Assembly: GCA_977017645.1 (NCBI GenBank)
Contig: OZ360239.1
Location: 50,282,001 to 50,346,000 of the forward strand
DNA length: 64,000 bases
Origin: Torpedo marmorata
Taxonomy: Eukaryota
Reading direction: 5' to 3'
Each line of letters starts with the position of its first letter. Position 1 is the stretch's first letter. Shown piece after piece: positions 1,773 through 55,153 of this stretch. The notes beneath the pieces were generated by a model, which had not been told where the DNA came from, ran no database searches, and worked only from the letters and a program-made list of their open reading frames with translations. The translations under genes and the position numbers were made by a program.

Positions 1773-2373
1773 TGTAGCGACTACCATCCATAAAAAAGCC
1801 GCTCGGAGGCTAAGTAGGCTTTTTACTGTGACACGTTAGAACAAATTCTTATCGAAGTCCAGACGCGTTTTAAAGCTGTTTATTATTGAACACGAAAGGA
1901 CTTGATAACGATAACTGTAACGTCCGTGATAATGGTAACGTCTGTGCTAACGATAACTGTAACGACTAACGTAACGTCCATGTAACGGTCAACAGAAAAT
2001 ATCGGAGCCCTACTCACCCACCGTCTCCCGCCATACCAGTCAACGCGGGCTAACTACACTCCAACCACGCACAACCCCAGCGCATGCACCAACTCCCAGT
2101 GAATGGCGCATGCTCACTGGCGAAAACGCTGGCCCAGGCTGAAACCGCTCACTGCCGGGGCCGAGCCAAGCGCACATGCGCCGCCACACTCTCTCTCTTT
2201 CTCTCTCTCTCGAGCCCCCCCCTCCACCTGTTAAACGGTGCCGGCCGTCGCGCATGCGGCCAATGGGCGGAGGGTGAGAGTGAGCGTCTTCGCGCAGCCT
2301 CCGGACCCCGGGACACCACCAACGCCTGCAGACAAACCAAGAAACGGTAAACAACGGGCCTTTGGCTCTTACA
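1773..2373 (-). repeat. 3' LTR of BEL-1 (601 bp)
   Basis: Starts tgtagcgactacc and ends ggctcttaca; homologous to 9063-9623 plus 10288-10323; CpG-rich. Confidence 0.95.
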
Positions 2374-2387
2374 CCGGCCCCTAATTA
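2374..2387 (-). promoter_or_regulatory. Polypurine tract of BEL-1
   Basis: Sense strand TAATTAGGGGCCGG abuts the 3' LTR; identical to the tract of BEL-2 at 54611-54624. Confidence 0.8.
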
Positions 2388-2605
2388 TTATGTCTCAATA
2401 ATAATTACACAATTATAAATACCAATCAAATACAGTAAATTTCAATATTATGTAGATCTTCTTTCTTCATAGGCCAGAGGTTACCAGCACATGGCCTTGA
2501 AAAGAGTGACCTTTACCACCATTCTGGACCAGTAAAGTCTGTAGTCTGTGTAGTGAGCAAGGGGCAAGGTCCAAAAAACAACAAAATAAAGTCAGTTGGG
2601 GCTTG

Positions 2606-5600
2606 TCAAAGTTCCTCTGTCTCCTGTAGAAGGCAGACTTTGTTGATGGGTCTGTTCAGAAAGCCGGTTTTGGTCTTGATCCGAACATGACGTACAAGTC
2701 CCTTTTTGTCCAGAATGGTCTCAACAATTTTTCCAGTTAGCCAGGAGTTTCGAGGCGTTGAATCATCCATGATGAACACGATGTCTCCTGGTGTGAAGTT
2801 GCATCTGATGTTAGACCATTTTTGTCGTTCCTGCAGTTGGGGGAGATATTCTTTAATCCATTTTTTCCAGAACAAGTCCGACATATACTGAACTTGCCTC
2901 AACCTGCGACGAGCATATATGTCTTCCTTCTGAAACTGCCCTGGTAGCATCGATGGCATAGTCTTAAGGAGCAGAAGATAGTTCGGAGTAAGAGCTTCAA
3001 AGTCATTTGGATCTGTAGAAGCCTTGGTGATTGGACGACTGTTGAGGATAGCCTCAGCTTCACATAAAACTGTGTGGGACCCTCCTTGTCAAGACTTTGC
3101 ACATTTAGGGTGGAATTGAGAACCTTTCGCACTGATCTAATTCATCTTTCCCATACACCTCCATGGTGTGAGCCAGCAGGGGGATTGAAGATCCAATTGA
3201 TTCTTTTCTGGAGCAGTGTATTATGGATTTGACCCTGATTCCAGCTTTCAATCGCCTCCCTCAACTCGCGCTGAGCTCCCACAAAATTGGTGCCATTGTC
3301 AGATCGTAGTTCTTTCACTTGACCACGTCTAGCTGTAAAATGCCAAAGGGCATTGATGAAAGAGTCTGTATCAAGTGATGATGCCACTTTGATGTGAATT
3401 GCTCTTACAGCTAAACATGTGAAAAGAACACCATAGCGCTTCACAACACTCCTTCCACGTTTCACTTCAAAGGGTCCAAAATAATCGACTCCAACATATG
3501 TGAAGGGAGGTTCATCAGGAGAGACTCTGTTCAGGGGCAAATCTGCCATCTGCTGTTGTCCAGGAGTAGCATTTATACGCCGACAAACAACACATTTCGA
3601 CACAATTTTTCTGATTGACACAGTGGCGTAGTCTGGATAACATATGGTTGCGACCACCATGACCCACATCTTCATGAACATGTCGAAGAATTAGATCAGA
3701 AATGTGAAAATCTTTGGTCAGTGTGACAGGATGTTTCATCTCTTCTGGCATTGCTGCTCTGCTAAGTCGCCCACCAACTCTTAATACATCATTTTCCAGA
3801 ATGGGGTTGTGTTTACAAATGTGGCTAGTCTTCTTAACATTCATTCTTTTTCTCAGACTTGAGATTTCACCTGCAAATCTCTTCTTCTGGCAAAAGCAGA
3901 TTATCTCCATTTCAGCATTAGCCAGTTCGTCAACTGTGAGACCACTGTTTTCCTAAGTCTCAAGATTTCCTGTCTCCTTTTGTGGCAGACCTCTGTGCTG
4001 GATGTCATCTGGATGAAGCTGAGCAAGAACACCGCTTGCTTGTTTCCTCTTTCTGCTACGATACAGAAGCAGTCCTTTAAGTCTGAGCATCCACACTACT
4101 GCCCTTTTCAAATGAGTCCATGATTAGAAGTATTTGATTAAGCAGGTTACTGGATCCACTTCTTCAGATTTAAGAGACCTTTGGTGAGATTTCTTCCAAT
4201 CCATCAGGATTTTGAGGCCACTCTTCCTGAGGCCGAAGTAGAAACTGAGGCCCGTACACCCATATTTCTTTCTTCAGAAAAGATTTGACTTTCAAACCTC
4301 GGGAACCCATGTCTGCTGGATTGTTAACTGTGTTAACATATCTCCACTGTAGTGCATGTGAGACTTTGTCAATTTCAGCAACTCTGTTGGCCACGAAAGT
4401 TCGGAACCTTGTGGTCTTATTGTTGATGTATTTGAGCACAGAGGTGCTATCGGTCCAAAATATGGAGTCTGCTAGTTCCATCTGCAGCTCTTTTCTCCAC
4501 ACTGTGTCCATTCTGCTCGTCATGGTGGCAGCAGTCAACTCCATTCGAGGGATAGTGACTGGCTTTAATGGAGCCACTCTTGCTTTTCCCATCACATACC
4601 CACAATGTGCCTGACCATGGTTATTATGCAGTAACAGGTAACTAACAGTTCTGTAACCGTCCTCACACGCATCAGCAAAATGATGCAGTTGAGCAGATGT
4701 CACCGTTCCAAAGTTTGTGGGTTTGAAGCATCTGTCAACCTTGAAGTCTTCCAGCTTATGAAGATCCTGAATCCAACACATCCATTCCTGTACAATGGAG
4801 TCTGGTATCGTATCATCCCAACCAATCCTTTTCCTACAAAAATCTTGCAGGATCTTCTTGGCAGTCAGGACTACTGGTGCCAATATTCCTAGAGGGTCAT
4901 ATATCGAACTGACTGTTGAAAGAATCCCCCTTCTTGTGAGGAATTGGTCTTTCCGATGATTTTGAACTTAAAAACGTCAAGACTGAACACACCATTGTAT
5001 ACCTAACACCCTCTCCACAGGAAGGTTGTCATGGTCCAAGTCCAGATTCTTCATTTCTTTTGCTCTCTCTGTTTCAGGTATGGCAGCCAACACATGACGA
5101 CTGTTACTTATCCACTTAGTAAGTAGAAAGCCTCCCTTGAATCAAATCACTCGTAGTTCATGATAAAGAGCTATTGCATCTTCTTCTAAAGCTGCTGAAG
5201 TGAGGCAGTCATCCACATAGAAGTTGTTCATGATGGTGCTTACAGCTTGAGGGCTAAACTGTTTCATATTGTCCTCAGCACAATTCCTAAGGGCAAAGTT
5301 CACACAACTTGGAGATGAAGTTGCTCCAAATAGATGCACTGTCATTCTGTATTCCACCATGTTCTGACTGTCGTCTCCATCAGGCCACTAGAGGAACCGT
5401 AACAAGTCACGGTCTTCATTTGATACTTTCACCTGGTGGAACATTGCTTCAATGTCTGCAGTGATGACAACAGGTTCTTTACGGAATCTAGTCAAGACTC
5501 CTATCAATGTACTGGTCAGGTCTGGCTGCTGTAAGAGCTGATAATTTAGTGAAACTCCCTGAAATGCCGCTCCACAGTCAAACACCACTCGAAGTTTTTT

Positions 5601-6560
5601 CTTTTGTGGGTGCAAACCCCATGGTGTGGTAGATACCATTTTTTGCCATCGCTACGTTCCAAGACACCATCTGGTACTTTCTCTGTACAATATAACCTTT
5701 GGATATCATGTCAGACATGAAGTTGGTGTAGTCCGATTGAAAGGAAGAATCCCTCTTGAATCTTCTCTTTAGGTTCAGTGTACGTTGTTCAGCAACACTT
5801 TTATTGTCAGGCATGCATATTTCTCTTTCCTTTAAAGGTAATCCAATGCAATCGAGTAGCTTGGCCGAGTTTAATACTAAATCCAAGAATTGCTTGTCTT
5901 CTCTTGAAGGTTCTTGGTCGTCACTTGAGGCACTCAGGAAAGTCAGTCCTGAACTGCTGTTCCCACAGCTCATCAAGTTTCACAACTGATATCCTGTTGA
6001 CACTTGTCGCTGACTGCTCCTGAGCATTGTCGTTTTTTCCTCCTAATGGTCCATTAATCGTCCAACCAAGCATGGTTTTGACAGCGTAAGGTCTGTCTCC
6101 CACATCCATATTACATCTAGTGGTTCCAGAGCCTTTGGTACATCTGAGCCAATCAGCAACTCTATCTCAGAGCCAATTTCAGGTAGATGAACATTCCTTA
6201 GATGAGACCACTGATCAATATCGTTTTGATGTGGGATGTTTCCTTTGTGCACAGACATAGTCTTTTGAGTGTATATGCCTGGGAGATCACAAAAATCACT
6301 GCTGTCCAGTCCAGCGACCTCTAGGCCTGAAGCAATGCTGGTTTCAACGACTTTCCTTTGACCTGTAGTTCTCAATAGAATCCTTGACCTTCTTCCCTAA
6401 AGATTAAGCTTATTCATTAGCCCGACTGTGCAAAATGATGCAGTGCTACCTGGGTCAAGAAATGCATAAATATGCACTGTTGCATTCCTCTTCCTGGCCT
6501 TGGCTTGTACAGGCACTATTGAGAGTTTGCAGTTATCTTCACCGGCCCCAGTAAGACCAC
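2606..6560 (-). pseudogene. pol: BEL/Pao pol (protease, RT, RNase H, integrase), broken by frameshifts and stops
   Basis: ORFs 6397-6693 (AFLDPGSTASF protease), 5388-5639 ([18 protein letters not shown]), 5142-5360 (HLFGATSSP, NFYVDD), 4170-4883 (QLHHFADA, IPRMEL, FWTDS), 3142-3910 (GVDYFGP, SDNGTNF, GGVWER), 2606-2959 (YLPQLQERQKW). Confidence 0.92.
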
Positions 6561-8623
6561 TTGTTAGAACGGAGGCAACAGCACTGTTTTCAGCTGCTTT
6601 CTTTATTTCTGCTTGCTCCTTTTCCATTTCCTTCTTTGGTGGATATGCAGCATTCTGGGATGCTTTAAACTGCATATGTTGCAGCTGAGTCACTTCCTGC
6701 AGTTTTTGCTGATGTGTCCTTTACACAAACAGCCAAAACACAGTCCATTTTCTTTTAGGAAAGCGATTTTCTTACTATGTGCCCTCTTTTCCAACCGTGG
6801 ACACATCTCAAAGCATGTCCACCTCCACAGAACAAACAGCTCTGCACAGCAGGCAAACTCTCCTTTTCCTTAGTTCCTTTATCATTTTCCTTATCTGCAA
6901 CTTTCACCGTGGTGGCAAAGATTCTTCCTTTCATTCTTGGATGAGGCTGTGACTTGGACCTCCTTGCATCTTTGCTCACTGTTGGAGTGCCTTTCATACC
7001 TCCAAATACTGGATCTGTTGCAATCTGCACTTGCCATTCAAGGAAATCCACCATATTCTTAAAGGTAGCTCTTTCATTGCATTTTGCCTGGAAATCACAG
7101 GCCACAGTTCTCCATATATCCCTCAGCCGGTAGGGCAACTTCCTTATGATGACTAGCATATTAGCAGGCATGTCAAGCTCATTCATGTAGTTGATATCTT
7201 CCATGGCATTACAACATCCTCTTAGAAAGAGGGCGTATGCTTGTAGAGCCTTTGTGTCATCCGGTTTTATTGACGACCATGAAAGAGCCTTCTCCATATA
7301 AGCTGTAGCAATTTTATGCTCGTTGCCAAAATGCTCCTGTAATAAAGACTTAGCCTTCCTGAATCCTCTGTCCGAGGCCAAATGTTTGCAACACCTTACA
7401 GGTTCCCTTGGCTGTCCTCTTGTGTACTGTTCCAGATAATAGAGACAATCTCTGGGGTTTTTGTTCTTGCTTTCAATACTGTGTTCAAAGGATTTAATGA
7501 ACGCTTGGTACTGAAGTGGGTCACCATCAAAAACTTGAATCTCCTTCTTGGGCATGGAAGAGAGACACTGTAGCTGGATTAATAATGTAGTGATTTCATT
7601 TTGCCTTTCCATGGCTGAGAATACGTCAAATCTGTTCACCGTTGCTTGTAGCAGGTAATGTAGCTGGAGATGTCACGTGACCGTTCACCCGGATTTCTGA
7701 TGCTTGACTGGAGTGTCATGGGAGCTGTGGTGAGAGATTGGATTTGAGCTACAGCTTTGTCTGCGGTTGTTATTATTGATGTTTGTGGATTGGTAACACC
7801 GTGCTTTGGGAGGATTTGTCCATGTGAATGCATGTCTTGTAACTGTGGTACAAAAGGATCTGCCTTAGCATTGTGTTTTCTTTTCCTGTTGTCCTTTCTC
7901 AAAATATGACTCCATACCATCAGACACTTCAGATAAGTTACTTCGAACACTGGATTCCTTTGAGGCTCCTAGTACCTTCACTTTAGCCATAGTAGCAGCA
8001 ATATTTGCTTCCAGCTCCAGCTGCTACTTTTTCCTCCTTAGCTACTCCTCCTGCTCTTCCAAGGCATATTTATCCTTAAGAAATTTTTGTCGTACAACAA
8101 GAGCAGCCATTTCAGCCTCAGCCTTTATACGTGCAGATGTAGTACTGGACACTCTGGAGCTTGATCCAGAAGAACTTTGTTTGCTTCTCCTGCTTCCAAC
8201 ATTTGACACACTGTCACCTGGTTCTATTTCATCCTGCATGTCAGATGTTGCCTTAATATTTGACACTTTCTCCAGTTTGAATTGCACATCCTTTGCATTT
8301 TCATCCTCTTCACCACCATTTTATGACACACCTTAAGCCATTTCCATGTTTCTGACTTTAAATTCAGTCGATGTCTTCTGCAGTGGTTTTACAGGGTCTT
8401 CATTCCCATCAACCAAAGCCACCTCTTCTTCTATTGCCTGTTTCAGCCTCGCAATGAGAACGCTTTTGACACCACTTATATCTAGGTTCCGCCGCTTCAG
8501 TTCTGATTTGAGATCTGTGATTCCCATGTCTGTGATACATTGCGCCTCAGCGGCAACACCGTCAGCAGTGGTGGCGGCAGCACCAAGCACGCACAACACA
8601 AGCCAAAAATCAACCGTCCCCAA
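6560..8623 (-). pseudogene. gag: BEL/Pao gag with N-terminal SAP domain, disrupted
   Basis: ORF 6755-7639 (FDGDPLQYQAF, LEQYTRGQP, KLPYRLR; DUF1759-like) with Cys/His knuckles at about 6640-6850; ORFs 8042-8287 and 8333-8623 are in one frame, separated only by stops. Confidence 0.85.
8423..8536 (-). other. SAP domain resembling SLTM/SAFB N-terminus, at the start of BEL-1 Gag
   Basis: [38 protein letters not shown] fits the SAP consensus (L..L...L..RGL...G.K..L..RL) and closely matches SLTM as recalled from memory. Confidence 0.85.
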
Positions 8624-9043
8624 TGGACAAGCGGCAGCACATCCAAACTGTTTTCAAACTTGCAACAAATACACAGAAGGAATCCACAAACGTAATCCTA
8701 CCGCTTCTGATGGCTGTGATGCACTGCTGTCAACTAGCAAGTTTCCACCGCGGCAGCAGTCAATAATATCGCTGTGATTCTCGGCAAATGACTCTACCAG
8801 CGTGTATGTAGGACATTCTGCTCTAGGGTTAGAAGCCCTGGATCCCTCTGTGGCCGATGCTCAGACCAATGGAGGCGATTTGCTGTCAGTGGCCTGCGCT
8901 CGGCATTTCCAACATGGCCACCATATTGTTTTCAGTATCGCTCCAAACCGAAGAGGGGAAAGAGTCCAAATGTTCCAACAATGTCCATTCAATCCAAAAC
9001 TCCAAGATTCAAGGCGTCCATGCAGTTCTGTCGTAGATGCGAC

Positions 9044-9057
9044 TATTTTCTGTTGAC
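9044..9057 (-). promoter_or_regulatory. Non-canonical PBS-position sequence of BEL-1, complementary to its own LTR
   Basis: Sense GTCAACAGAAAATA, 5 nt downstream of the 5' LTR, with no TGG; exact reverse complement of LTR segment 9279-9292. Confidence 0.75.
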
Positions 9058-9062
9058 TAATA

Positions 9063-10323
9063 TGTAGCGACTACCATCCATATAAAAGCCGCTTGAAGGC
9101 TAAGTAGGCTCTTTACTGTGACGCGTTAGATCAAATTCATATCGAAGTCCAAATGCATTTTAAAACTTTATTATTGAACACGAAAGGACTTGATAACGAT
9201 AACTGTAACGTCCATGATAAAAGTAACGTCTGTGCTAACGATAACTGTAACGACTAACGTGGTAACGTCCATGTAACGGTCAACAGAAAATATTGGAGCC
9301 CTACTCACCCACCGTCTATCCCGCCATACCAGTCAACGCGGGCTAACTACTCTCCAACCGCGTACAACGCCTGTGCATGCGCCAACCCCCAGTGATTGGC
9401 GCATGCTCACTGGTGAAAACGCTGGCCCAGGCTGAAACCGATCGCTGCCGGGGCTGAGCAAAGCGCGCGTGCGCCGCCACGTTCTCTCTCTTTCTCTCGA
9501 GCCCCCCCTCCACCCGATAAATGGTGCCGGCCGTCGCGCATGTGGCCAATGGGCAGAGGGGGAGAGTCAGCGTCTTTGCGCAGCCTCCGGACCCCGGGAC
9601 ACCGCCAACGCCTGCAGCCAAACTGTAGCGACTTCGTCCAATAAAAATAGTCGCTTGGAGGCTAAGTTAGGTGTTTGTCTGCGACGCGTTTTCATTAATT
9701 TACCAACAAAGTCCAAAACGTTCAAAAACCTTTATTTACCTTTGACTTGCAGTAATCTTCGATGACTTTAATATAAACAGTTCTTGAAATGATGTAAAAC
9801 GATGTAAAAAGGTTATAAAACGATCTAAAACGTGTATTAAACGATGTTAAAACGTGTTAAACGATGTCAAACGTGTTCCAAACGATGTCAAAACGGTTGA
9901 CAGGAATTGTCGACACCTAACTCACCCTCCTCAGATTTCCAACCGACGACTCGCGTGGGGGAACCTGTATTTAAACGCGCAGATCCCACCCGCGCATGCT
10001 CCGTTGTGCACGCGCTGGCCCCGGCCCCAACCGTTCGCTGCTGGGGCTGAGCCAACCGCGCATGCATCTACCTAGTCCATGGCGCATGCGCACTGATGTG
10101 GTGCCGGCCCCGGCTGAAGCCGCCGCTGCCGAGCCAACCACGCATGCGCCGCCACGCTCCAGCTCCGTGAGCGGTGGCGGCACTCGCGCATTGCGGCCTA
10201 CGGGAGAGGCCTACGGACCCCGGGACACCTCCGGCGCCCGTGGCCAAAACAGCAGGAAAGTAGGGAGCCTATGGCTCTTACACAAACCAAGAAACGGTAA
10301 ACAACGAGCCTTTGGCTCTTACA
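9063..10323 (-). repeat. 5' LTR of BEL-1, split by a nested solo LTR
   Basis: 9063-9623 and 10288-10323 together match the 3' LTR. Confidence 0.92.
9624..10282 (-). mobile_element. Solo LTR of a related BEL/Pao family (659 bp)
   Basis: tgtagcgact...ggctcttaca termini shared with BEL-1 but a divergent interior; 5-bp TSD CAAAC (9619-9623 / 10283-10287). Confidence 0.9.
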
Positions 10324-11343
10324 CATAGGAATACTAATCCTTGGGTGTAATTCCAGTTACAATTTGTTAAATTGCTAACATTCAAAAGATTAATTTATTA
10401 CAATGCAGTTGACCAAAACATGTTGGTGCTGACCACACCTTAAGGTGATTGAAATCCATGCCTTAACCTGAAATGCTGAAATAATAAACTGCAAGTTATC
10501 TGTTTGAACTATCTTATGTGGATCAGCATGATTAATGAAACAATAAACCACTCAAAATCATGTTGTTCATTTAAATAGTTTTACAATAGTGGACCAAGAG
10601 AAAATAGCATTTATGAAGGTTCATCATGATAAAAATTGAGAAGCAATATAAGAATGTAGAAATGTAAAGTGTAGAATTGTTAAAGTAAAAATAGTCATTG
10701 AACAATAAGTAATTCAGTTCTACATGTGCTCACATGCAATTCACGTTATTAAACAGTTAACTTGAAAGTTATAAATTTGGCTCTTCTGTTTTCAGCATTT
10801 TTCAGCCATCACCAATGTGAAGAGCTTGAAGGGTGCCACATAGAACCTTCAAATGGTCAAGACAGGGAACTTGCCCAATGGGAGATTTGTTAACATTGCG
10901 AAGCCTCCATTACAATAAGTTTGAGGCACAGTGAATTCCACTGTTTTATAATCTTGGTGTTGTACTTGACCTGAGAAAAGTATAGGAAACAAGCATCAAT
11001 GCCTTGACTTGGATATTTATTTTCACTTCTGTGACAACACCAAACTTAATCATCTCAGCTCATTTGAAACCAGATCCATGCTTCTGATATCATAGACTGG
11101 ATTATACCATTGCAATTTACATCATTTTAAGGTAATACAATCTTTTTCTGCTTGAACTCTGGTTCCATTTTCCCATTCAGTTCTCACGCATGTGCGAGCT
11201 GGCCCATGTTTGTTGGGCATAAACTTAATTTTGGTAAACACGAAAATCTGTAGACACCGTGGTAGAAGTAAAAAACACAAAAGCTGGAGAACTCAGCAGG
11301 TCAAACAGTGTCTTTTATTTAGCAAAGGTAGAAATACATAACC

Positions 11344-12626
11344 TGGACCAAAGACCCGACCAGTCACCCTCTACCACCACCCTCCTCCGCCTGGCAGAAC
11401 TTGTCCTTACTCTCAATAACTTCTCCTTCAACTCATCCCACTTCCTCCAAATCAAAGGAGTAGCCATGGGTACCCGCATGGGTCCCAGCTACGCCTGCCT
11501 GTTTGTGGGCTTTGTGGAGCAATCCATGCTGCAAGCCTACACAGGCAACACCCCTCATCTCTTCCTCCGGTATATCGACGACTACATCGGGGCTGCCTCA
11601 TGCACCCACGATGAGCTTGTCAACTTCATCCACTTCGCATCCAACTTTCACCACGATCTCAAACTCACCTGGTCCATCTCCGATAACACTCTCCCCTTCC
11701 TGGATCTCTCTGTCTCCATCTCGGGAGACAAGCTTTCCACCGACATTTACTACAAACCCTCCAACTCCCACAACTATCTGGACTACACATCCTCACACCC
11801 TGTCCCCTGCAAGCACTCCATCCCCTTCTCTCAATTTCTCCGCCTTCGCCGCATCTGTTCCCAAGATGAGGTGTTCCCCTCCAGATCTTCTGAAATGTCT
11901 GCCTTTTTCCACAAACGTGGCTTCCCCTCCACCACCATCAACTCAGCCCTCACCCGCATCTCCTCCATTTCCCGCTCATCTGCCCTGGCCCCCTCTGCCC
12001 CCAGACGCAACAAACATAGAATACCCCTCATCCTCACCTACCACCCCACCAGCCTCCGCATCCAACACATTATCCGCCGGAATTTCCGGCACTTGCTGCA
12101 GGATCCCACCACCAGACACATTTTTCCTTCTCTTCCCCTCTCGGCCTTCCGTAGGGACCGCTCCCTCCGCGATTCACTCGTGCACTCGTCCCTCCCCACC
12201 CATCGCACCCCCGGAACCTTCCCCTGTGCCCGCAGGAGGTGCAACACCTGCGCCCACACCTCCCCCCTCACCACGGTCCAGGGCCCCAAACAGGCCTTTC
12301 AAGTGAAACTACACTTCACTTGTACATCCAGAGGACTTATTTACTGCATCCGGTGCTCCCTTTGTGGCTTTCTATACATTGGAGAGACCGGTCGTAGATT
12401 GGGAGACCGCTTTGCTGAGCACCTCCTCTCCGTCCGCAACAACAGCGACTTCCCAGTAGCCAACCATTTCAATTCTGGGTCACACTCCCACACTCACATG
12501 TCTGTCCATGGCCTCATGTACTATCCCACCCAGACTACCCGCAAATTGGAGGAACAACATCTCATATTCCGTCTCGGCACTCTCCAGCCAGATGGAATTA
12601 ACATTGACTTTTCTGCTTTCCACTAA
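11344..12626 (+). CDS. Penelope RT plus GIY-YIG endonuclease (5'-truncated, open frame)
   Basis: ORF 11259-12626: GVAMGTRMGPSYA, RYIDD, LPFLD, Cys linker CARRRCNTC, LIYCIRC..C..YIGETGRRLGDRFAEH, VANHFN, GINID. The first 28 or so codons are read from the inverted pLTR. Confidence 0.9.
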
Positions 12627-13315: not shown

Positions 13316-14003
13316 GTCTAAAGCACCTGATCTCTTTGCCTTCCTACTCTACTCCCTTAAGATGCTCACTGAAGCCTAACTCTGACAAAGCCTTTGTCAT
13401 CTGTCCCATTGGCTCCTTAAGTGGCTTGATGTAAACATTTGTTTCATGAAGGTCCTATTTAAGCTGTCATTTAAGTCTCCAGTTTAAGATGTTTCACCTT
13501 TTATATAAATGCAAGTTGATTTTGTTGAGAAGTGGAATTCTCCCTCTTTTGGTCACTAACACCCAACATCTATGCAGGATGTCACAGCTGGAATCACTCT
13601 GCAGTGACCTTCTCTCTGCAAAATTATCAGTAAAATATTTATCAATGTTTGCAATCAGATAATACAGAACAAACATACAATAAAACTGTAATTAGAGAGA
13701 AAACTGTTGACAGTGTGAAGAGGTGAAGACTGTTGTAGAATTGTAAGATTCGTTTTTTCTGGAGATTAGTGGAGAATGGTAGAACATTCTCTCATTAAAA
13801 TCACCAAACTAACAGTGTAGTAACTCCATTGTTGATGCCAGTACCAACCTTACAGAGTTAGGGTTAGGAGTACTTCATATTGCATCTGTGAGATTTTTTT
13901 CTATTCCCACTTCTACCACTCTTTTACAATTCTAAGTGTCTTTGCCCGTTAGTTTGGAATTAAGCACAGTTATATAATGAAATGGTATTTTGAATCATTG
14001 TAA

Positions 14004-14342
14004 TGTAGCGTGAGCTACACAGAATTCTGAAGAACAACACACAGTCGGTGGGTTGCAAGCAAGACTGTTTAATCGGGTCTCGCAGCCTTGGCTTTTAAGC
14101 AGGGCTGCGAGCTTAATTGCTGTCGTTTACATGACCGTTGCCGCTTAATCGCTGTCATCTACATGACAACGGGAGCTGTACATTACAATGGTAACTTTCC
14201 AGGGTCTCCTGTCCTTCTTCTCCTGGTTGAAGAAGGAAGGGGGACGATGCCATCTTTGCGCTGGCACCTGCTATTGCCACGTGTACTTGTGCGGCCGCCA
14301 TCGCGGGCACCGGTTCACTTGCCCAGAGCGGGTACTGCTACA
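14004..14342 (-). repeat. 3' LTR of the Gypsy element (339 bp)
   Basis: tgtagcgtgagc...gctaca; matches 18091-18397 plus an extra 32-bp repeat unit. Confidence 0.92.
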
Positions 14343-17300
14343 CATCCCCCCCCAGAACTGGTGTTAGAGTCTCTCGGTTGTTGGGGAGGCTGGCCCCTGC
14401 CTCTGGGTGCCTGTAGTTCAATAGGTTGAGTTAAGTCCATGTGTGCTGGTTTTAAATGGTCTGTCGTGAAACATTCTTCTTTATCCCCAATGTCCAATAT
14501 GAAGGTGGAGCCGTTATTTTTAACTACCCGGAAAGGGCCTTCGTAAGGCCGTTGTAGTGGTGCCCTGTGTGGTCCCCTTCTGACGAACACATACTCACAG
14601 CTCCGCAGGTTGTTGGGGATGCGCTCGGGCCGCTGTCCACGTTGCGACGTGGGGATCGGTGCTAGCTTGCCGAGTTGCTCGCGGAGTCTGTTGAGCATCT
14701 CTGCTGTGCTGGCATCTTGCCCCCTTGGGGCAGGTAGGAATTCCCCTGGTATCACCAGGGGGGTTCTGTAGACCAATTCTGCCGACAAGGTATTGAGGTC
14801 TTCTTTAGGCGCTGTGCGGATCCCCAGGAGGACCCACGGCAGCTCGTCCACCCAATTTGGACCGTCTAGGCGGGCCATTAGAGAGGCTTTTAGGTGGCGG
14901 TGGAAGCGTTCCACTAAACCATTGGATTGTAGGTGGTAAGCCTTCGTTTTGTGGAGCTGTGTGCCCAGCAAGTTGGCCATGGCTGCCCACGGGGCTGATG
15001 TAAATTGGGCCCCCCTGTCTGAGGTAATGTGGGCTGGCACCCCAAAGCATGCGACCCACGTGGTGATAAGAGCTCTGGTACAGGTTTCGGTGGTGATGTC
15101 CGCGAGAGGGACTGCCTCGGGCCAGCGAGTGAAACGGTCCACCATGGTGAGGAGGTATCGCGCTCCTCTGGAGATGGGTAGGGGGCTTACCAGGTCTACG
15201 TATGTGGTCAAATCGCCTGGTCGTTGGCTCAAATTTTTGTGGCTGGGTCTTTGTGTGGTTTTGGACTTTTGAGGTCTGGCACTGCACGCAGTTCTTGGCC
15301 CATTCGGTGACTTTCTTGCGGAGACCGTGCCAGACGAATTTACTGGAAATAAGTTTAGCGGTAGTTCTGATGGACGGGTGGGATAAGCCGTGAATGGAAT
15401 CGAAAACCTGCCTCTGCCACGTGGCTGGGACAATGGGTCGGGGGTGGCCTGTTGAGACATCACATAGGAGAGTTTGCTCACCTGTGCCGATGGCGATGTC
15501 CTGTAGTTGCAGCCCGGTGGTCGCAGTTCTGAAACAGTGCGTCTCTTCATCAGCCTGCTGCGCCTCTGCCAGGGTGGTGTAGTCAATCCCTTGGGCTAAG
15601 GCTTGGATAGTTGGCTGGGATAGTGCATCCGCTACAGCGTTGTCCTTTCCTGAGACATGCTGAATCTGTGTCGTGAACTCAGATATGTAGGACAATTGGC
15701 GCTGTTGGCAGGCTGACCAGGGGTCGGAGACTTTCGAGAACACAAAAGTGAGCGGTTTGTGGTCATTGAAGGCAGTGAATGTTCTACCTGCCAGAAAGTA
15801 TCGAAAGTGCTGTATGGCCAGGTACAGTGCTAGTAGCTCCAGGTCGAAGGTGCTGTATTTAAGTTCGGGTGGCCGTAAATGTCTACTGAAAAAGGCCAAG
15901 GGTTTCCAGCTGCCTTCACTAAACTGCTCCAGTACCCCGCCGACTGCCGTGTTTGAAGCGTCCACCGTGAGGGAGGTTGGCACGTCGGTTCTGGGGTGAA
16001 CAAGCATCGTGGCATCAGCCAGGGCCTCTTTGGCTTTGTTAAAAGCCGCAGTGGATTCCACGTCCCAAACCAGCACTTTGACTTTGCCAGCCATGAGAGT
16101 GAAAAGCGGACGCATGATGCGGGCTGCTGCTGGCAGGAACCTGTGATAAAAATTGACCATCCCCACGAACTCCTGGAGGCCCTTGACAGTGGACGGTCGG
16201 GGGAATTTGCGAACCGCGTCCACTTTGTCGGGTAGGGGAGTTGCGCCATGGCGTGTGATCCTATGGCCCAGGAAGTCAATTGTGGAGAGGCCGAACTGGC
16301 ATTTGGCCAGGTTGACTGTAAGGCCGAATTGGTTTAGGCTGTTGAACAGCTGGCGGAGGTGTGCTATGTGCTCCTGGCGGGTTTTACTGACGATAAGTAT
16401 ATCATCCAAGTAAATGAAAAGGAAGTCCAAATCCCGCCCTTCCGCATCCATTAAGCATTTGAATGTTTGGGCTGCGTTCTTTAGCCCGAATGGCATGCGG
16501 AGGAATTCAAACAGGCCAAAAGGGGTTATGATGGCTGTTTTGGGCACATCCTCCTGTAGCACGGGGATTTGGTGATAACCTCGGATGAGGTCGACCTTTG
16601 AGAATATAGTCGCCCCGTGCAGGTTGGCCGCGAAGTCCTGAATGTGGGGTACAGGTTAGCGGTCGGGAGTGGTGGCTTAATTAAGCCTGCGGTAGTCACC
16701 GCATGGCCTCCACCCGCCGGATGCTTTTGGCACCATGTGCAGTGGGCTTGCCCAGGGACTATCAGAGCGCCTGATTATCCCTAAGGCCTCCATCCTGCTA
16801 AACTCCTCTTTGGCTAGTCGGAGGTTATCCGGGGGCAAACGGCGTGCGCGGGCGTGGAGCGGTGGGCCCTGGGTGGTGATGTGGTGCCTGACGCCGTGCT
16901 TGGGCATCTCTGCTGTGAACTTGGGGTCGGAAATCGACGGGAAATCAGCGAGCAAGCGGGTGAAATCGTCCTCTGGCTGCGCTACGGAGCTCAGCTGGGT
17001 GGAGTGGTGATTGAATTTTTGCAGGGCAAAGGATTGGAAGGTCCGTGCGTGGACCAGCCGCTTACCCTGCAGGTCTACCAGTAAGCTGTGTGCCCTGAGG
17101 AAGTTGCCCCTAGGATGGGCAGCCACACGTTTGCGAGCATGAACTCCCACGAGAAATGGCTGTCGCTGAACCGGAGGTATGCCGTCCTCGGGCCGAATGT
17201 CGGAATGGAGCTGCCGTTGGTGGCCCGCAGCGCGTGTCCCTGTGACTGGATCCTGGTTTCATACGGTGTCGGGGGAATAATGCTGATTTCAGCTCCTGTG

Positions 17301-17446
17301 TCCGCGAGGAACCACCGTCCGGAATTCTTGTCCCTGACATACAGTAGGCTGTCTCTGTGGCCATCCGTCGTAGCTACTAGCGACAGCTGGCCTTGTCGTT
17401 TCCCGTAAACTTGCAGAGGGACCTGCACTGGTGGTAGAAACACCAA
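14343..17446 (-). pseudogene. pol: Gypsy pol (protease, RT, RNase H, integrase with GPF motif)
   Basis: FLADTGAEIS; SPWASPLHMVPK..WRPCGDYRRLN; MPFGLKNA, YLDDIL; VDASN..GGVL, YSTFDLEL, DHKPL, NAVADALS; HPSI..CVQCQ; VDRFTRW, TSDRG, SNGLVERFHR, YEGPF. Confidence 0.93.
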
Positions 17447-18051
17447 TCGAGGTTGGCGTTGTCGCTGCTGCTACCGTGGGCTGTGCGTTCGGTGGGATGA
17501 GCAGGGTTGGGGTGTTGGGTTTTTGGTTTGACCACTTGGTCGACCATTGTCTGACTCACCCTTCCTGCTTCCCAGAGAGTGTCCGCTCGAGTTGCCACCG
17601 TCCTGGGCGTGGAGAAATCCGCCTCTGCGACTGCCAGGCGCACGTTGAGTGGCATCATCTCTAAGAAGACCTGCTCGAAGAAAAGGCACGTGTGGCCTCC
17701 TGTGAGGGCCAGCATCTCGTCCATGAACTGTGTGGCCGATTTGTCTCCCAGCCCGTCCAGCCGCAGGAAGCGGGCACCCTGCTCCCGTCGCAAAAGCCCG
17801 AAAGTGTTCATCAACAGGGCTTTGAAAGCGGGGTATTTACCCTCCTCCGGTGGTCAGTGCAGGAAATCTTCCACCCGTGCGGCTGCATCCTCTCCGAGTG
17901 AGCTGACCACATGGTAGTACTTGGTGGCATCTCCGGTGATGCTGCGGAGTGCAAACTGTGCTTCTGCCTGATCGAACCACACATGGGGTCGGTGGGTCCA
18001 GAAGGTCGGCAGCTTGACGGCGACTGCGCTGATGGCTGTGGAGTCGGTCAT
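17377..18051 (-). pseudogene. gag: Gypsy gag, frameshifted
   Basis: MTDSTAISAVAVKLPTFWTHRPHVWFDQAEAQF...KYYHVVSSL, continuing in ORF 17377-17814 (GLGDK, WCFYH...C). Confidence 0.88.
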
Positions 18052-18076
18052 TGTAGGTCCAAATTCGTTTGGACTT

Positions 18077-18089
18077 GTCGGGGTTACCA
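18077..18089 (-). promoter_or_regulatory. Primer-binding site complementary to tRNA-Trp 3' end
   Basis: Sense TGGTAACCCCGAC versus the tRNA-Trp PBS TGGTGACCCCGAC (one mismatch), 1 nt from the 5' LTR. Confidence 0.85.
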
Positions 18090-18090
18090 A

Positions 18091-18397
18091 TGCAGCGTGA
18101 GCTACACATAATTCTGAAGAACAACACACAGTCGGTGGGTTGCAAGCAAGACTGTTTAATCGGGTCTCACAGCCCTGGCTTTTAAGCAGGGCTGTGAGCT
18201 TAATTGCTGTCGTTTACATGACAATGGGAGCTGTACATTACAATGGGAACTTTCCCGGGTCTCCTGTCCTTCTTCTCCTGGCTGAAGAGGTAGGGTGGTC
18301 GGTGCCATCTTTGCGCCGGCCCCTGCTGTTGCCACGTGTACTTGCGCGGCCGCCATTGTGGGCACCAGTTCGCTTGCCCAGAGCGAGTACCGCTACA
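18091..18397 (-). repeat. 5' LTR of the Gypsy element (307 bp)
   Basis: tgcagcgtgagc...gctaca, adjacent to the PBS. Confidence 0.92.
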
Positions 18398-18717
18398 GTA
18401 AGATACTTATTGCAATTCACAACTTAACAACTATTTTCTGACCAATGAAATATGTAATTAATTCTGAACTGCAAAGTTAAATGCAGATTTTTATTACATG
18501 ATAATAAAGGAACCTTGAGATGTAATTATGTTTGCAGGTCATAGATATTAAAATAAAGTTTAAAGGACAGTGAAAAAAACACTTGTTTTATACTTTTGAC
18601 CATGTTTATTGTATAGTAGGTATTTGTTTTTGGCAGTACATTTGAGAAAGTTATCATGCAGGGATAACCTGCGTCAAAGTTGATTCAGCAGATTGATGTT
18701 GTGGTACATTAATGTCA

Positions 18718-38100: not shown

Positions 38101-41100
38101 TACTGGGGGAGACAAGACAAGACCTCTACAGGAGGGATGGTTTACACCTGAATGCAAAGGGGGCCAATTTACTGGCAGTTAGGTTTAATAATGCTGTTGG
38201 ATTTGATTTAAACTAATTTGGCAGGGGGAAGGGAACAGGACTGATAGGGAAGCAGATAGGAGAGTGAATATAGGGGTGGTTCCGATAGATGGTGAAACCA
38301 TAAGGAAAAGGGGAACTAAAAGTGATAGGAGAGTAGGGGCAAGTGCATCAGGAACAAAGGTGGAGGGAGAAGGGAGATATGGTATCAAGGTATTGTATAT
38401 GAATGCACGGAGTGTAAGGAATAAAATGGATGAGCTTGAGGCGCAAATGGCAATGGGAGGTTATGACATTATCGGAGTAACGGAGACATGGCTGCAGGAG
38501 GGACAGGATTGGGAAATAAATGTTCCAGGGTACACGTCCTATAGAAAGGACAGAAAGTTAGGAAGAGGTGGTGGGGTAGCTCTGTTGGTAAGTAATGAAG
38601 TTCAGGCGTTTGAAAGGAAAGACATTGAAACAGGTGGGCTAGAGTCTGTTTGGATAGAATTAAGAAATTGCAAAGGCATGAAGACCATAATGGGGGTAAT
38701 TTACAGGCCTCCGAAAAGTAGCTCAGATATAGGAAGTAGTATAAATCAGGAATTAAGAGTGGCATGTCAAAGTGGTAGCAATACGGTAGTTATGGGGGAC
38801 TTCAACATGAAGGTGGACTGGGAAAATCAGACGGGGGCAGGAAAACAAGAGAGTGAGTTTATAGAATGTCTACGAGACACATTCTTGGAGCAGCTAGTGG
38901 AGGAACCTACCAGGGGAAGTCGATTCTGGACTTGGTGCTGTGCAGCGACGCAGAGTTAATAAGTGACCTCGAAGTAGGGGTGCCATTAGGGAATAGTGAC
39001 CATGGTATGGTTACTTTTGATCTGCAATTGGAAAGGGAAAAAGAAAGGAAGTCGGAAGCATCTATACTGCAGTTAAATAAAGGGGATTATGCAGCTATGA
39101 GGGAGGAGCTAACCAAAATAAAATGGAAAGATACACCAGCTGGGAGGACAACTGGGGAAAAATGGCAGGTATTTTTGGACATTTTTCACAGGATTCAGGA
39201 CAAATTCATTCCAAAGTGGAGGAAAGGCTCAAGGAGATGCAAATGGCAGCCGTGGCTAACTAATGAAATAAAGTGCATTATCAAGTCCAAAGGGAGTAAG
39301 TATAAGATAGCGAAGCAGAGTGGGAAGCTAGAGGATTGGGAAACCTTCAAAGAACATCAGAGGGTAACTAAGAAAGTCATACGAGAGGGGAAAATGAAGT
39401 ACGAGAGGAAATTAGCAAATAATATAATAGAGGATAGCAAAAGCTTTTTTAAATATGTGAAGAGGAAGAAATTGGTTCGGTCTAAAATTGGTCCATTAAG
39501 AATGGAAAAGGGTGGAATTATTACTGGAAACAAGGAAATGGCTGAGGAATTTAACAAGTACTTTGCATCTGTCTTCACCAAGGAGGATATAGGTTATGGT
39601 CAGTTAGGGGGTAGTGGTCATGCGGTATCAAGAGACTTGGGGAACTTTCCTCGGGAAGTAGGGAATCTGATAGATATCCGGATCCAGAAGCAGGAGGTTG
39701 TGAGTAAATTGTTGGGACTGAGGGCTGATAAATCCCCAGGGCCTGATGGGCTGCATCCCAGGGTGCTTAAAGAGGTTGCTCTGGAAATTGTGGAGGCACT
39801 GGTCGACATTTTCCAAAGCTCCATAGATTCGGGGGAGGTCCCTGTGGATTGGAGAGTGGCTGATGTGGTGCCGCTTTTTAAGGAGGGAGGGAGAAAACGG
39901 GAAATTATAGACCGGTCAGCCTGACGTCAGTGGTGGGGAAGATATTGGAATCTATCATAAAAGGAGTAATAGCAGAACACTTAGGCAGAAATAATAGTAT
40001 AAGGGCTAGTCAGCATGGATTCCTTAAGGGTAAGTCATGCTTGACTAACCTTCTGGAATTTTTCGAAGATGTGACAAAGAGGGTGGACTTGGGAGAGCCA
40101 GTGGATGTGGTGTATTTGGACTTCCAGAAGGCCTTTGATAAGGTACCGCACGGGAGACTAGTGGGCAAGATCAGGGAGCATGGTATTGAAGGTAAGGTGC
40201 TGACATGGATAGGAAATTGGTTAAGAAATAGGAAACAAAGGGTTGGGGTAAGCGGGTCTTTTTCAGGATGGCAGGATGTGACGAGTGGAGTGCCGCAGGG
40301 ATCGGTGTTGGGTCCTCAGTTGTTTGTCATTTATGTAAATGATTTGGATGATGGGATTATTAATAACATGAGCAAATTTGCAGATGACACTAAACTGGGT
40401 GGCGGTGTAAAGTGTGAAGAGGATGTCAGGAAAATGCAGAGGGACTTGGACAGGTTGGGGGAGTGGGCTGAAGAATGGAAGATGAAGTTCAATGTGAGCA
40501 AATGTGAGGTTATCCATTTTGGGGGCAGTAATAGGAAAGCTGAGTATTATTTAAATGGAGACAAGCTAGGGAGTGGGGAAGTGCAAATGGATCTGGGTGT
40601 ACTTTTTCACCGGTCACTGAAGGCTAACATGCAGGTTCAGAAAGCTGTGAAGAAGGCAAATGGCATGTTGGCTTTCATAAAGAGGGGATTGGAGTATAGG
40701 AGCAGGGACGCCCTTCTGCAGTTGTACAGGGCCCTGGTGAGACCCCACCTGGAGTATTGCGTCCATTTCTGGTCTCCAAATTTGAGGAAGGACATACTAG
40801 CTATAGAGGGTGTGCAGCGCAGATTTACAAGGTTAGTTCCAGGGATGGCAGGGTTGACATATGCTGAAAGGTTAGAAAAACTGGACTTATATCCGATGGA
40901 GTTTAGAAGGATGAGGGGGGACATGATTGAGGTATACAAAATTATCAAGGGGATAGACAGGGTGAAGTCGGATTACTTGTTCCCAATGACGAGGACTAGA
41001 GGGCATAGTTTAAGAATACAGGGAAGGCCCTTTAGGACGGAGATGAGGAAAATTTTTTTTACCCAGAGAAGTGTGAATTTGTGGAATGCTCTGCCACAGA

Positions 41101-41300
41101 GGGTGGTAGAGGCAGATTCGCTGATTATGTTCAAAAGAGAGTTAGATAAGACTCTAGTGGGCAGAGGAGTTAAGGGTTATGGGGATAAGGCTGGTAAGTG
41201 GTACTGATAGTAGTGATCAGCCATGATCTGTAAAATGGCGGTGCTGGCTCGACGGGCCGAAGGGCCTACTCCAGCTCCTATTGTCTATTGTCTATTGTCT
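38101..41300 (+). mobile_element. Young CR1 LINE, 5'-truncated within ORF1
   Basis: ORF1 esterase end (DLYRRDGLHLNAKGANLLA, stop at about 38216), near-complete ORF2 and (CTATTGT)n tail. Confidence 0.93.
38390..41207 (+). pseudogene. CR1 ORF2 (APE endonuclease plus RT), two frameshifts
   Basis: ORFs 38264-38959 (YMNARS, VTETW, GVIYRPP, GDFN), 38866-39924 (SDH, KSPGPDG) and 39930-41207 (QHGF, LDFQKAFD, GVPQGSVLGP, FADD). Confidence 0.92.
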
Positions 41301-49439: not shown

Positions 49440-49966
49440 TGTAAGAGCCAAAGGCTCGGTTCTTACCTTAATCGCGGCGTTCTGATGGTCTCAGCGGGTG
49501 TCGGAGGACTCACGGAGATTAGTAGGCCGTGCTAGGACTATTGACTACTCTGCGCATGCGCAGGAGTGCCGATGAGTGCATGCGCAGTGGGGAGGTGGCT
49601 GGAGCATGCGCGGTGGAGCATGCACGCGAATCGGGAAAGAAGTATAAAAAAAACATGGCGACGTAGAGGAGGGTGAGCGAGATCATCATAGTTTTCATTG
49701 ACCGTTATTAATGACGTTATAAAGGATCGTTTTAAAGGAACGTTATTAAGAATCGTTATTAAGCATCGTTATCAAGGATTGTTATCAAGGATTGTTTATA
49801 TTTCGTTAAAGAAGATATTTAAGTTATTGAAGATTGCTACAAGTCATCATGTGTTAATAAACATTTTGAACATATTGGATTTTGTTAGTAAATTAATTGA
49901 AATGTGTCAAGAACAAGTGTCTCACCGAGCCTCCAAGTGACTATTTATTGGATTGAAGTCACTACA
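49440..49966 (+). repeat. 5' LTR of BEL-2
   Basis: tgtaagagcc...gtcactaca; TATA box at 49643, AATAAA at about 49856, GCGCATGCGC motifs. Confidence 0.93.
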
Positions 49967-49971
49967 ATTTA

Positions 49972-49984
49972 GTCAATGAAAACT
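49972..49984 (+). promoter_or_regulatory. Non-canonical PBS-position sequence of BEL-2, complementary to its own LTR
   Basis: GTCAATGAAAACT, 5 nt after the LTR; exact reverse complement of 49690-49702 AGTTTTCATTGAC. Confidence 0.75.
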
Positions 49985-50424
49985 TATTGTTTGGAACAGA
50001 AAATTGAAGAATAGAAGATAGAATAAGCTCTCTGTGCTTTGGATTGATATTTAAAATAAGATGGTGGCCATCTTGGAAATGCCTCGAGTGAGGGGCAGTT
50101 TGTAATCAACATCCATCTGCCATGAGTAACAGCCAGAGAAGGATTCAGAGCTTCTAATCTTATAGTAAAGTATCCTATAAATACGTTGGTGAAACCATTT
50201 CTTGAAAATCAGTGATATTATTGACGGATGCTGCGGTGGAAACTCATTTGTTAATAGCAGCATATTACAACCATCTGAAGCGGTAGGCATAAGTCTATGG
50301 ATTCCTTCTGTGTATCTTTGGCAAGTTTGAGCACAGTTTGGATTTGCTGCCGCTAGTCCTTTGGGGACTGTTGATATGGCTAGAGTTGTGCATTCTCGAC
50401 GGACGGTGGAACAAGACGAGGAAA

Positions 50425-53236: not shown

Positions 53237-54390
53237 TTATTTTCATCAGAAATGGATGATAATGAAGTATTAGAAGATGTTGCAAATAATACTAGTGAGT
53301 ATTCCTGTGTAATTGAATCTGAGGCAGGAATAAAGCAAATGACTGAGAACAAATGTGAAAGTAGATTTTGTAGCTGAGGTTACAGCAGACAAGGTAAATA
53401 AAGAAATGTTGCAACATGATGCAAAACTGGCGAACGCAGAAAATTGTGCTGATACAATAAAGAAGCATGTGACTGATAATTTAATGCAATTGAATTCAGA
53501 GAACAAAATGTTGAAAAGGGAATTGGAAATATTGGATAATCATGAAAACAGTAAACAAAGATTTAATTGTAAATAAAATTCGCAAAGTCAGAAAGTTGAA
53601 GAAAAGAATAACTGCTGAAGAAATAAATAGTTATTGAGGAAAGAGATTCAGCATTATCAAGATATAAAAGGTTGGAGGAAGAGATTCATCTTTTGAAAGA
53701 GAACAAGTTATTGGTTAATAACACAAAACAGCTGACTACAGAAAACAATCAAGAATATAAATTGAAGGTTCAGCTACTAACAATGCAGAAAGAAAGTGAT
53801 ATTGCATTGCAGCAATGTAACAAGCAAGATGAAGAAATTCAAACATTGCAAGTTTACCATAGTGGGATTGACAATAGAAGTATCAATATATCACATGATA
53901 TTTTCACTTCAAATCAAGTTATTAATTTCTCGGAAGAAAATGAGACTGAATCGAAAGTTGCGAAATTCAATATGGAATTGAAGGAAAAAGCAATAGAAAC
54001 CACAGTGGTTGAAAAGACTGCAGTTTTAGTTAAAGGAATTTGTATGAGCCATAAGTGGAACCTGTCTACTTATTTACAGAAGGTTTCTACAAATGTTGTG
54101 GATGTTGATGAGTTTGAAGAACTAATATTGTTTGAATATTATCTTTGTATGATCAACTGTGGAAAAGAAAGAAAAGGATGAGCAAATCTGTTGCAAGAAA
54201 GGTTAAAGAGACTCGTTTATTAAAATCGAGAGGATCAGATAAATATTCAAAATCTGGTTCTGAAAGTTCATATTATTCCTATGAGAAACGACATGCTGAA
54301 GAAGTACCTCATGTTAAATTCAAAAGGAAAACAGTATCTATTTTGTCTGAGGAAGATTTGAGGTTTACTGGTCGACGTTTTAACTCAAAG
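53145..54390 (+). pseudogene. AT-rich, coiled-coil-coding cargo replacing pol in BEL-2
   Basis: E/K/Q/L-rich ORF pieces 53355-53576, 53672-54181 and 54145-54414 with no RT or integrase motifs; BEL-1 homology stops after NRISVVKFDEL.EQQ and resumes at gaactttga. Confidence 0.6.
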
Positions 54391-54624
54391 ATTCTGGAGA
54401 TAAAAGAACTTTGATAAATACAAACTGACTGTATTTTGTTGTTTTTGTATACTACACAGGTTACAGAATTTATTGATCCAGAGTGATGGTAAACTCTGGT
54501 CTTATGAAGAAATAAGAAAGAAGATTTGTATATTATTTGAATGTTATATGATTATTGTTATTTGTAATTGATTGTGTAATTATTATTTCAGACATTACGT
54601 CTCATTATAATAATTAGGGGCCGG

Positions 54625-55153
54625 TGTAAGAGCCAAAGGCTCGGTTCTTACCTTTATCGCGGCGTTCCGATGGTCTCAGCGGGTGTCGGAGGAGTCACGG
54701 AGATTAGTAGGCCATGCTAGGCCTATTGACTACTCTGCGCATGCGCGGGAGTGCCGACAGGCGCATGCGCAGTGGGGAGGTGACTGGAGTATGCGCGGTG
54801 GAGTATGCGCGGAGGAGCATGCACGTGAATCGGGAAAGAAGTATAAAAAAAAACATGGCGACGTAGAGGAGGGTGAGTGAGATCGTCATAGTTTTCATTG
54901 ACCGTTATTAAAGACGTTATAAAGGATCGTTTTAAAGGAACGTTATTAAGACTCGTTATTAAGCATTGTTATCAAGGATTGTTTATATTTCGTTAAAGAA
55001 GATATTTAAGTTATTGAAGATTGCTACAAGTCATCATGTGTTAATAAACATTTTGAACATATTGGACTTTGTTAGTAAATTAATTGAAATGCGTCAAGAA
55101 CAAGTGTCTCACCTAGCCTCCAAGTGACTATTTATTGGATTGAAGTCACTACA
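54625..55153 (+). repeat. 3' LTR of BEL-2
   Basis: Matches 49440-49966; preceded by TAATTAGGGGCCGG. Confidence 0.93.

Follow-up and report, generated by a model that had tools for sequence, protein, structure and literature searches.

A decayed BEL/Pao LTR retrotransposon carried by the Torpedo marmorata genome very probably primes minus-strand DNA synthesis with a segment of its own LTR, that is, by self-primed reverse transcription, judging from its letters and those of its relatives. The element lies in a stretch of 64,000 nucleotides of contig OZ360239.1 (the window), and the segment, which we call the arm, is complementary to the primer-binding site (PBS) just past the 5' LTR. This self-complementarity is real, is not due to chance and extends across the lineage.

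The element, of family B (Table 1), is flanked by the target-site duplication (TSD) CTATG (10324-10328 and 1768-1772) and has TG...CA LTR ends and a polypurine tract; because DUF1759 and Peptidase_A17 are encoded in its fragmented frames, it belongs to BEL/Pao. Its LTRs are 90% identical to each other, its RT-RH piece is 81% identical to that of an intact relative, and it reads as an old, broken copy. The 5' LTR stretches from 10323 to 9063 because a solo LTR of sister family A is nested inside it, 40 nt from its start and with a 5-bp TSD of its own; the arm of this nested LTR lies at 9896-9906. Nearly all relatives have CCGG right after the polypurine tract, at many loci as in the window, and the predicted primer cut likewise adjoins C-CG, so that an RNase H preference common to both sites is possible. 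The window also holds a Gypsy element (about 13980-18400, minus strand) with an ordinary TGG-type PBS after its 5' LTR, which served as a control, a frame at 11238-12626 (plus strand) with a weak GIY-YIG match, possibly a Penelope-like remnant, and LINE endonuclease and RT fragments at 38207-41207.

Table 1. Features of the two BEL/Pao elements in the window and of the LTR nested in the first
Feature	Position	Strand	Basis or remark
Family-B BEL/Pao LTR retrotransposon, decayed	1773..10323	-	TSDs, LTR identity, Pfam domains, fragmented frames
5' LTR of family-B element, split by nested solo LTR	9063..10323	-	
Nested solo LTR, sister family A	9624..10282	-	own TSD GTTTG (10283-10287, 9619-9623)
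Leader strand of predicted helix P0; also splice-donor-like, GG/GTGAGT	9296..9313	-	
Self-primer arm TATTTTCTGTTGAC	9279..9292	-	predicted cut after ...GAC (9279), before CG
AATAAA of 5' LTR, within the P1 and P0 loops	9167..9172	-	sequence
U5 strand of predicted helix P0	9095..9111	-	
Predicted U5 hairpin at LTR end (AGCGGCT with AGTCGCT)	9066..9093	-	sequence; part seen in fold
Spacer TATTA, 5 nt, LTR end to PBS (0-7 nt in sister families)	9058..9062	-	
PBS GTCAACAGAAAATA, complementary to arm (helix P1)	9044..9057	-	sequence
gag fragment (DUF1759)	6755..7672	-	Pfam, E 1.6e-09
pol fragment (Peptidase_A17, BEL/Pao marker)	4170..4967	-	Pfam, E 1e-45
Polypurine tract AGGGG plus CCGG ahead of 3' LTR	2374..2382	-	
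3' LTR of family-B element, with the same arm	1773..2373	-	
Arm AGTTTTCATTGAC of second BEL/Pao element (family C, about 49440-55156)	49690..49702	+	
PBS GTCAATGAAAACT of family-C element	49972..49984	+	13 bp with own arm AGTTTTCATTGAC; 0/100 shuffles

On the minus strand, the 5' LTR ends ...GTCGCTACA at 9063 and is followed by TATTA (9062-9058) and then by GTCAACAGAAAATA (9057-9044), so the sequence bears out the description of this junction in the earlier note, including the lack of a TGG. We checked the central claim of that note in the sequence as well: the 14 nt at 9044-9057 are the exact reverse complement of 9279-9292, whereas the longest duplex formed with 100 dinucleotide-shuffled LTRs averaged 5.3 bp and in none of the 100 reached 14. 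The loop of the stem, put at about 220 nt, measures 221 nt and does include the AATAAA (9172-9167). A proposed extension of the stem by 3 bp past a 1-nt bulge, using the allele of the 3' LTR, is present in this copy but is no family trait, as most other copies read ...AAAATA-GCC.

Searching the 6.2-Gb genome by DNA similarity, we obtained 41 scored matches and examined 30, of which 28 proved to be other 5' junctions of family B. At least 14 bp are kept in 19 of these, 13 bp in one, and the remaining eight carry private mismatches; none of the 28 starts with TGG. Since the copies were chosen by similarity to a query containing both arms, these counts speak to conservation and not to co-variation. 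Because the arm of the nested LTR is a different one, a matching PBS could be predicted for full family-A copies. Such copies read TTAA and then GTCGACAGGAA, which is complementary to their arm TTCCTGTCGAC, and 11 of 12 family-A junctions pair over at least 11 bp, with small indels or changes at the edge of the duplex in five of the 12. One family-A element (L057/L058) has a pair privately changed on both sides. Broken duplexes are found in 8 of the 28 family-B and 1 of the 12 family-A copies. Both LTRs of another family-A element (L036 and L042; G000:C5, about 41.34 Mb) carry a 43-nt extension in which the spacer is combined with 6 PBS nucleotides, an inverted polypurine-tract-like piece and a repeat of the LTR end, likely an aberrant product of reverse transcription.

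The second BEL/Pao element of the window, of family C, pairs with its own arm through yet other letters (Table 1). It has 5.2 kb between its LTRs and encodes gag and protease, by eye apparently without RT or integrase; several family-A LTR pairs are spaced similarly, at 5.2-5.5 kb, and may be non-autonomous. Further families came from 40 regions among the 150 Peptidase_A17 matches listed, 25 of which had a true LTR pair, 13 no LTR pair and two spurious pairs; none of the 25 with a true pair has a TGG site. These regions added families D (arm CTTTATTGAC), L064, L094, L063 and L099. A subfamily with an extra T in the arm (L114, L125, L126) has an extra A in the PBS; three copies (L109, L124, L098) are exceptions, with arm and PBS one base out of step. 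For one junction pattern of family D we counted 10,787 exact matches, against 0 for the control, so the lineage replicates well. Family D (L081-L100, L102-L130) is very young and very abundant, and identity within its LTR pairs reaches 100%. These LTRs have TA rather than CA as their last bases, and a right end that shifts by 0-7 nt between subfamilies, which suggests variable trimming by integrase; the family-A-type LTR that L094 carries on a Pol 95% identical to that of family D suggests an exchange of LTRs between families. Across sister families, two of them in the window, complementarity is thus kept with different letters through compensatory changes, and the tRNA-independent priming proposed in the earlier note gains support from self-complementarity with such family-specific co-variation.

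We weighed this reading against priming by a host tRNA, a tRNA half or another small RNA, for which the LTR arm would be a decoy or a copy. The ICTV profile gives tRNA-Arg or tRNA-Gly as primers for Belpaoviridae (PMC8742986), and half-tRNA primers are described for Copia lineages in the available text of PMC6317226. Among the 27 distinct tRNA genes compared (from 30 of 61 loci; seven amino acids only, with one Arg and one Gly), the best match to the window PBS is 6 nt long and internal to the tRNA, and the PBS of no element in a set of 28 matches over more than 8 nt; within this partial set, no tRNA fits better than the arm. The TGG-type PBS of the Gypsy element, our positive control, likewise found no matching tRNA among the 27 genes, so the set is too small to decide, and the case against tRNA priming is carried by the diversity of the PBSs and their matching to self. 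No single host RNA fits, because 15 different arm sequences each match the PBS beside their own LTR, and a change on both sides occurs even within a single copy. No junction examined has a TGG, and an Rfam search over 8900-10400 gave four weak matches, all far below threshold. A tRNA-primed BEL/Pao element that could serve as a negative control was not recovered among the elements examined. We regard a host-RNA primer as extremely improbable.

To this the wider relatives add both diversity and a different arrangement of the arm. Homologues at 57-82% identity occur in bony fishes, molluscs and one brittle star, where the source is named; viral contigs yielded no relatives. A metagenome scan covered 80 loci, 61 of which were excluded as too short, without an anchored LTR end or copies of one family (L189, L195). 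The other 19 were anchored, 10 by an LTR pair and nine by the inverted repeat alone, and these nine, being circular for the pairing test, were kept apart. In a cross-test of 28 elements, the mean duplex between a PBS and its own LTR is 9.75 bp long, against 6.0 bp with the other LTRs, and 1.9% of the off-diagonal cells reach at least 10 bp; 19 of the 28 elements reach 10 bp directly, nine of the 28 being circularly anchored. The elements present 15 distinct 10-nt arms. Pairs 1-2 (C-G, A-T) never vary in them, and each of pairs 3-10 occurs in two to four Watson-Crick types; as pairing among these arms is true by construction, the informative part is their diversity.

The nine elements that remain below 10 bp directly are all anchored by an LTR pair, and most have a predicted intron in the LTR, of the form GT(A)AG...pyrimidine-AG and 67-123 nt long. 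Across the predicted exon junction the duplex measures 15 bp in L156 (3' LTR), 12 bp in L159, L169 and L174 (3' LTR), 11 bp in L193, and 10 bp in L181 (5' LTR only) and in L184 with its copies L189 and L195; the intron of L184 was seen with a relaxed acceptor rule and missed by the strict one. The 8-bp junction duplex of L202 is not significant. For seven intron-type elements, shuffled PBSs match the observed junction duplex in 0-1 of 40 cases. In L178 the 3' LTR contains an uninterrupted arm of 11 bp, at which point the 5' LTR diverges at an acceptor-like AG; the two LTRs (145-326 and 6924-7103) differ exactly at the predicted splice acceptor, which may reflect natural intron loss or an assembly chimera. 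Taken together, 18 of the 19 elements whose LTR end was fixed independently of the inverted repeat form a duplex of 10-15 bp between the PBS and their own LTR, none of the 19 starts with TGG, and in seven of the 18 the arm exists only across the GT-AG junction of a predicted LTR intron, whose splicing is likewise a prediction. In a quick RT-RH tree with midpoint root, one branch (SH-aLRT 88) separates 16 contiguous from 10 intron-type elements; this allows, and does not show, a single origin, in whichever direction.

Two features of the junctions look like marks of priming. The distance from the LTR end to the duplex, fixed by the TSD in 15 of 27 copies and left unfixed in 12, is 0 nt in eight copies, 1 nt in one, 2 nt in four, and 6 nt and 7 nt in one copy each. 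In the eight copies at 0 nt the LTR is flush with base 1 of the PBS, so any primer must pair from the first G; the arm, for its part, has a conserved ...AC/C boundary at its 3' end. The second feature is position +11 of the PBS, which in 29 copies of the youngest D subfamily is G in 19, T in five, A in four and C in one. Lying just past the 10-bp duplex, +11 is the sole four-allele column of 964 and the most homoplastic, with 10 parsimony steps against 8 in the next column and a mean of 0.33. It differs in 126 of 208 pairs at less than 2% divergence and in none of the 10 closest pairs, counts in which pairs are not independent and +1 to +9 are fixed by the search pattern. Copying of the next arm base would yield an A at +11, and neither T nor C. 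Untemplated bases are known, from studies of retroviruses and Ty1, to be added at the ends of templates when strands are transferred. The earlier note had offered a second role for the stem, a block of premature polyadenylation; the flush LTR end and the hot spot at the edge of the duplex speak more for priming.

The arm probably does not stand at the very start of the RNA. TATA-like boxes occur 60-82 nt before the 3' end of the arm in 11 of 19 elements (none in the window copy) and, together with a co-varying helix between leader and U5, point to an arm inside the transcript and to a primer that probably lies some 20-40 nt into it, unlike in Tf1. This predicted helix, P0, joins, in families of the same genome, the 18 nt that precede the arm to a stretch of U5 located 35-55 nt from the LTR end. 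The two strands co-vary (TAGGTGT/ACACCTA in A, TAGATGT/ACATCTA in L094, GTGAGAT/ATCTCAC in D') and pair as GTAGGGCTC/GAGCC(T/C)AC in family B. P0 is better than all 200 shuffles in A, L094 and D'; it is weak in the window copy, where 25 of 200 shuffles are as good, and also fails to beat shuffles in most metagenome families, so that it is not general outside this genome. We considered whether GG/GTGAGT in the leader strand is mainly a splice donor and found no support for this, since P0 explains its conservation too and the motif is absent in L063, L099 and most metagenome families.

In nested folding, the arm:PBS helix P1 has a probability of at least 0.79 in 6 of 19 RNAs with the leader and of at least 0.8 in 9 of 18 without it. 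Such folding often drops P1, partly because P0 crosses it. In young family D, P1 is near 0 and the duplex reaches only -9.8 kcal/mol, so a pseudoknot or a chaperone would be needed. A U5 hairpin and short PBS-adjacent extensions were seen by eye; P0 has a topology unlike the Tf1 pretzel, and the folds are inconsistent. In our model we read the primer as a fragment with its leader, held by the two helices P0 and P1. The +11 hot spot suggests a primer of 10-12 nt and the TATA-like boxes and P0 suggest a longer leader; if only 10-12 nt of the longer form are copied, a second cut or a stall would be needed.

The same helices could serve regulation only, hiding the 5' AATAAA or acting as a switch for translation or packaging while something else primes. 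Both form only at the 5' end and both enclose the AATAAA, they compete in nested folds as a switch would, and the leader strand is splice-donor-like in families of this genome. A purely regulatory role nevertheless leaves no other primer site, does not account for the eight copies with a duplex from the first base past the LTR, and leaves unexplained the invariant AC end, the 0-7 nt register and the four-allele hot spot; moreover, the arm of intron-type elements needs splicing and sits some 90-150 nt away from the end of the LTR (L159, L169, L181, L193, L202). We consider it quite improbable as the whole explanation, and regulatory and priming roles are not exclusive. Alternatively, the arm might act in trans, the primer being supplied by a second genome copy, by short solo-LTR transcripts or by the 3' R of the same RNA. 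Solo LTRs and 3' LTRs all carry the arm, folding in cis often does not favour P1, and the few copies with arm and PBS out of step are what a primer from another copy would give. The co-change in L057/L058 and the tight matching within subfamilies, on the other hand, favour the same molecule or a packaged twin, and P0 ties the leader to the U5 of the 5' end, which leaves priming in trans very improbable.

We therefore return to self-priming by the 5' LTR, for which we propose the following course. Transcription would start some 30-50 nt before the 3' end of the arm, the arm would fold onto the PBS (P1), and the leader 5' of it would pair with U5 (P0, crossing P1). Retroviral tRNA primers are known to make extra contacts with U5, to which P0 may be likened. 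The RNA would then be cut after ...GAC, probably by the RNase H of the element, leaving a 3'-OH 5 nt from the LTR end; in Tf1 an RNase H cut frees the primer, and here such a cut is inferred solely from the conserved AC/C boundary. Strong-stop DNA would copy U5 and the part of R past the cut, everything before the cut, arm included, would be inherited from the 3' LTR, and the PBS would be rebuilt by copying 10-14 nt of primer. With the PBS rebuilt from the primer, mutations of the arm would pass to the PBS and an untemplated base would often remain at the edge of the duplex. Invertebrate-type relatives would obtain the arm by splicing out the LTR intron, and the window lineage looks like the intron-less form. 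We favour, with some reserve, a broader proposal: that a large BEL/Pao branch of aquatic animals has exchanged the tRNA primer for a tRNA-mimicking fragment of its own RNA, taken from the 5' end and held at the PBS as well as at U5; that in the ancestral form the spliceosome took an intron out of the 5' R to build this primer, the intron copy in the 3' R having to stay unspliced to be inherited; and that the fish-type lineage of the window fixed the spliced form once.

The element resembles Belpaoviridae in its Peptidase_A17, its DUF1759 and its 5-bp TSD. Belpaoviridae are described with an 18-nt PBS for tRNA-Arg or tRNA-Gly (PMC8742986); here such a site is absent, with no TGG and a best tRNA match of 6 nt in the partial set. 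The third Gag knuckle of the intact relative L089 is CX2-4CX3HX4H and not the CX4CX6HHX3C of Suzu, and by comparison with the Sinbad/Pao and Suzu patterns in the available text of PMC554778 the clade is probably Sinbad/Sailor, as judged from the knuckles of this relative and not of the window copy. Self-priming is described for Tf1/sushi elements (bioRxiv 10.1101/2022.12.06.519325 and PMC3601003, in the portions available), the former portion giving the Tf1 primer region as a three-duplex "pretzel". As in Tf1/Tf2 and Tf1/sushi, the window element has no tRNA site and a 10-14 nt LTR segment pairs with the PBS beside the LTR end, and as in Tf1/sushi extra helices may surround the central duplex; unlike them, it has BEL/Pao markers and not the Pol of a Ty3/gypsy chromovirus. 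In Tf1 the primer lies at the RNA 5' end and the extra helices use LTR sequence downstream of it. The arm of the window element, by contrast, is predicted to lie 20-40 nt into the RNA, with the upstream leader forming the strongest extra helix, and the Tf1 arrangement, in which the first 11 nt of the RNA serve as primer, probably does not apply. A spacer of 0-7 nt, LTRs that in some cases end in TA and relatives that split the arm with an intron are further differences. By analogy, then, we infer that the element works like Tf1 self-priming, outside the Tf1 group.

Self-priming has also been predicted in plants for Tcn1 (Gypsy) and TAR/Houba/Osr-1 (Copia), according to the available text of PMC6317226; there, as here, the prediction concerns members of otherwise tRNA-primed superfamilies, these being other superfamilies, so that BEL/Pao would be the third with the trait. 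The accessible portions of PMC5445492 and PMC5443660 mention self-priming only for Tf1 and that of PMC8220671 adds nothing on it; those of PMC554778 mention neither PBS nor tRNA, and those of PMC3118150 and PMC6238403 neither primer nor tRNA. We found no report of self-priming in BEL/Pao in the literature, although older primary papers, Repbase or GyDB may hold a mention.

BEL/Pao ranks among the major LTR superfamilies of animals; its replication is described as poorly understood, with tRNA priming assumed (PMC8742986). If a branch of it does prime itself, LTR elements would have dispensed with a tRNA primer independently for a third time. Such a branch would presumably escape control by tRNA supply and by 3'-tRNA fragments, and it would explain why PBS-based tools miss such elements. 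The 3' end of the arm, the +11 scar and the intron are precise targets at the RNA level. In the relatives, a primer built by splicing would tie retrotransposition directly to the splicing machinery of the host, and host splicing would then be a licence for reverse transcription.
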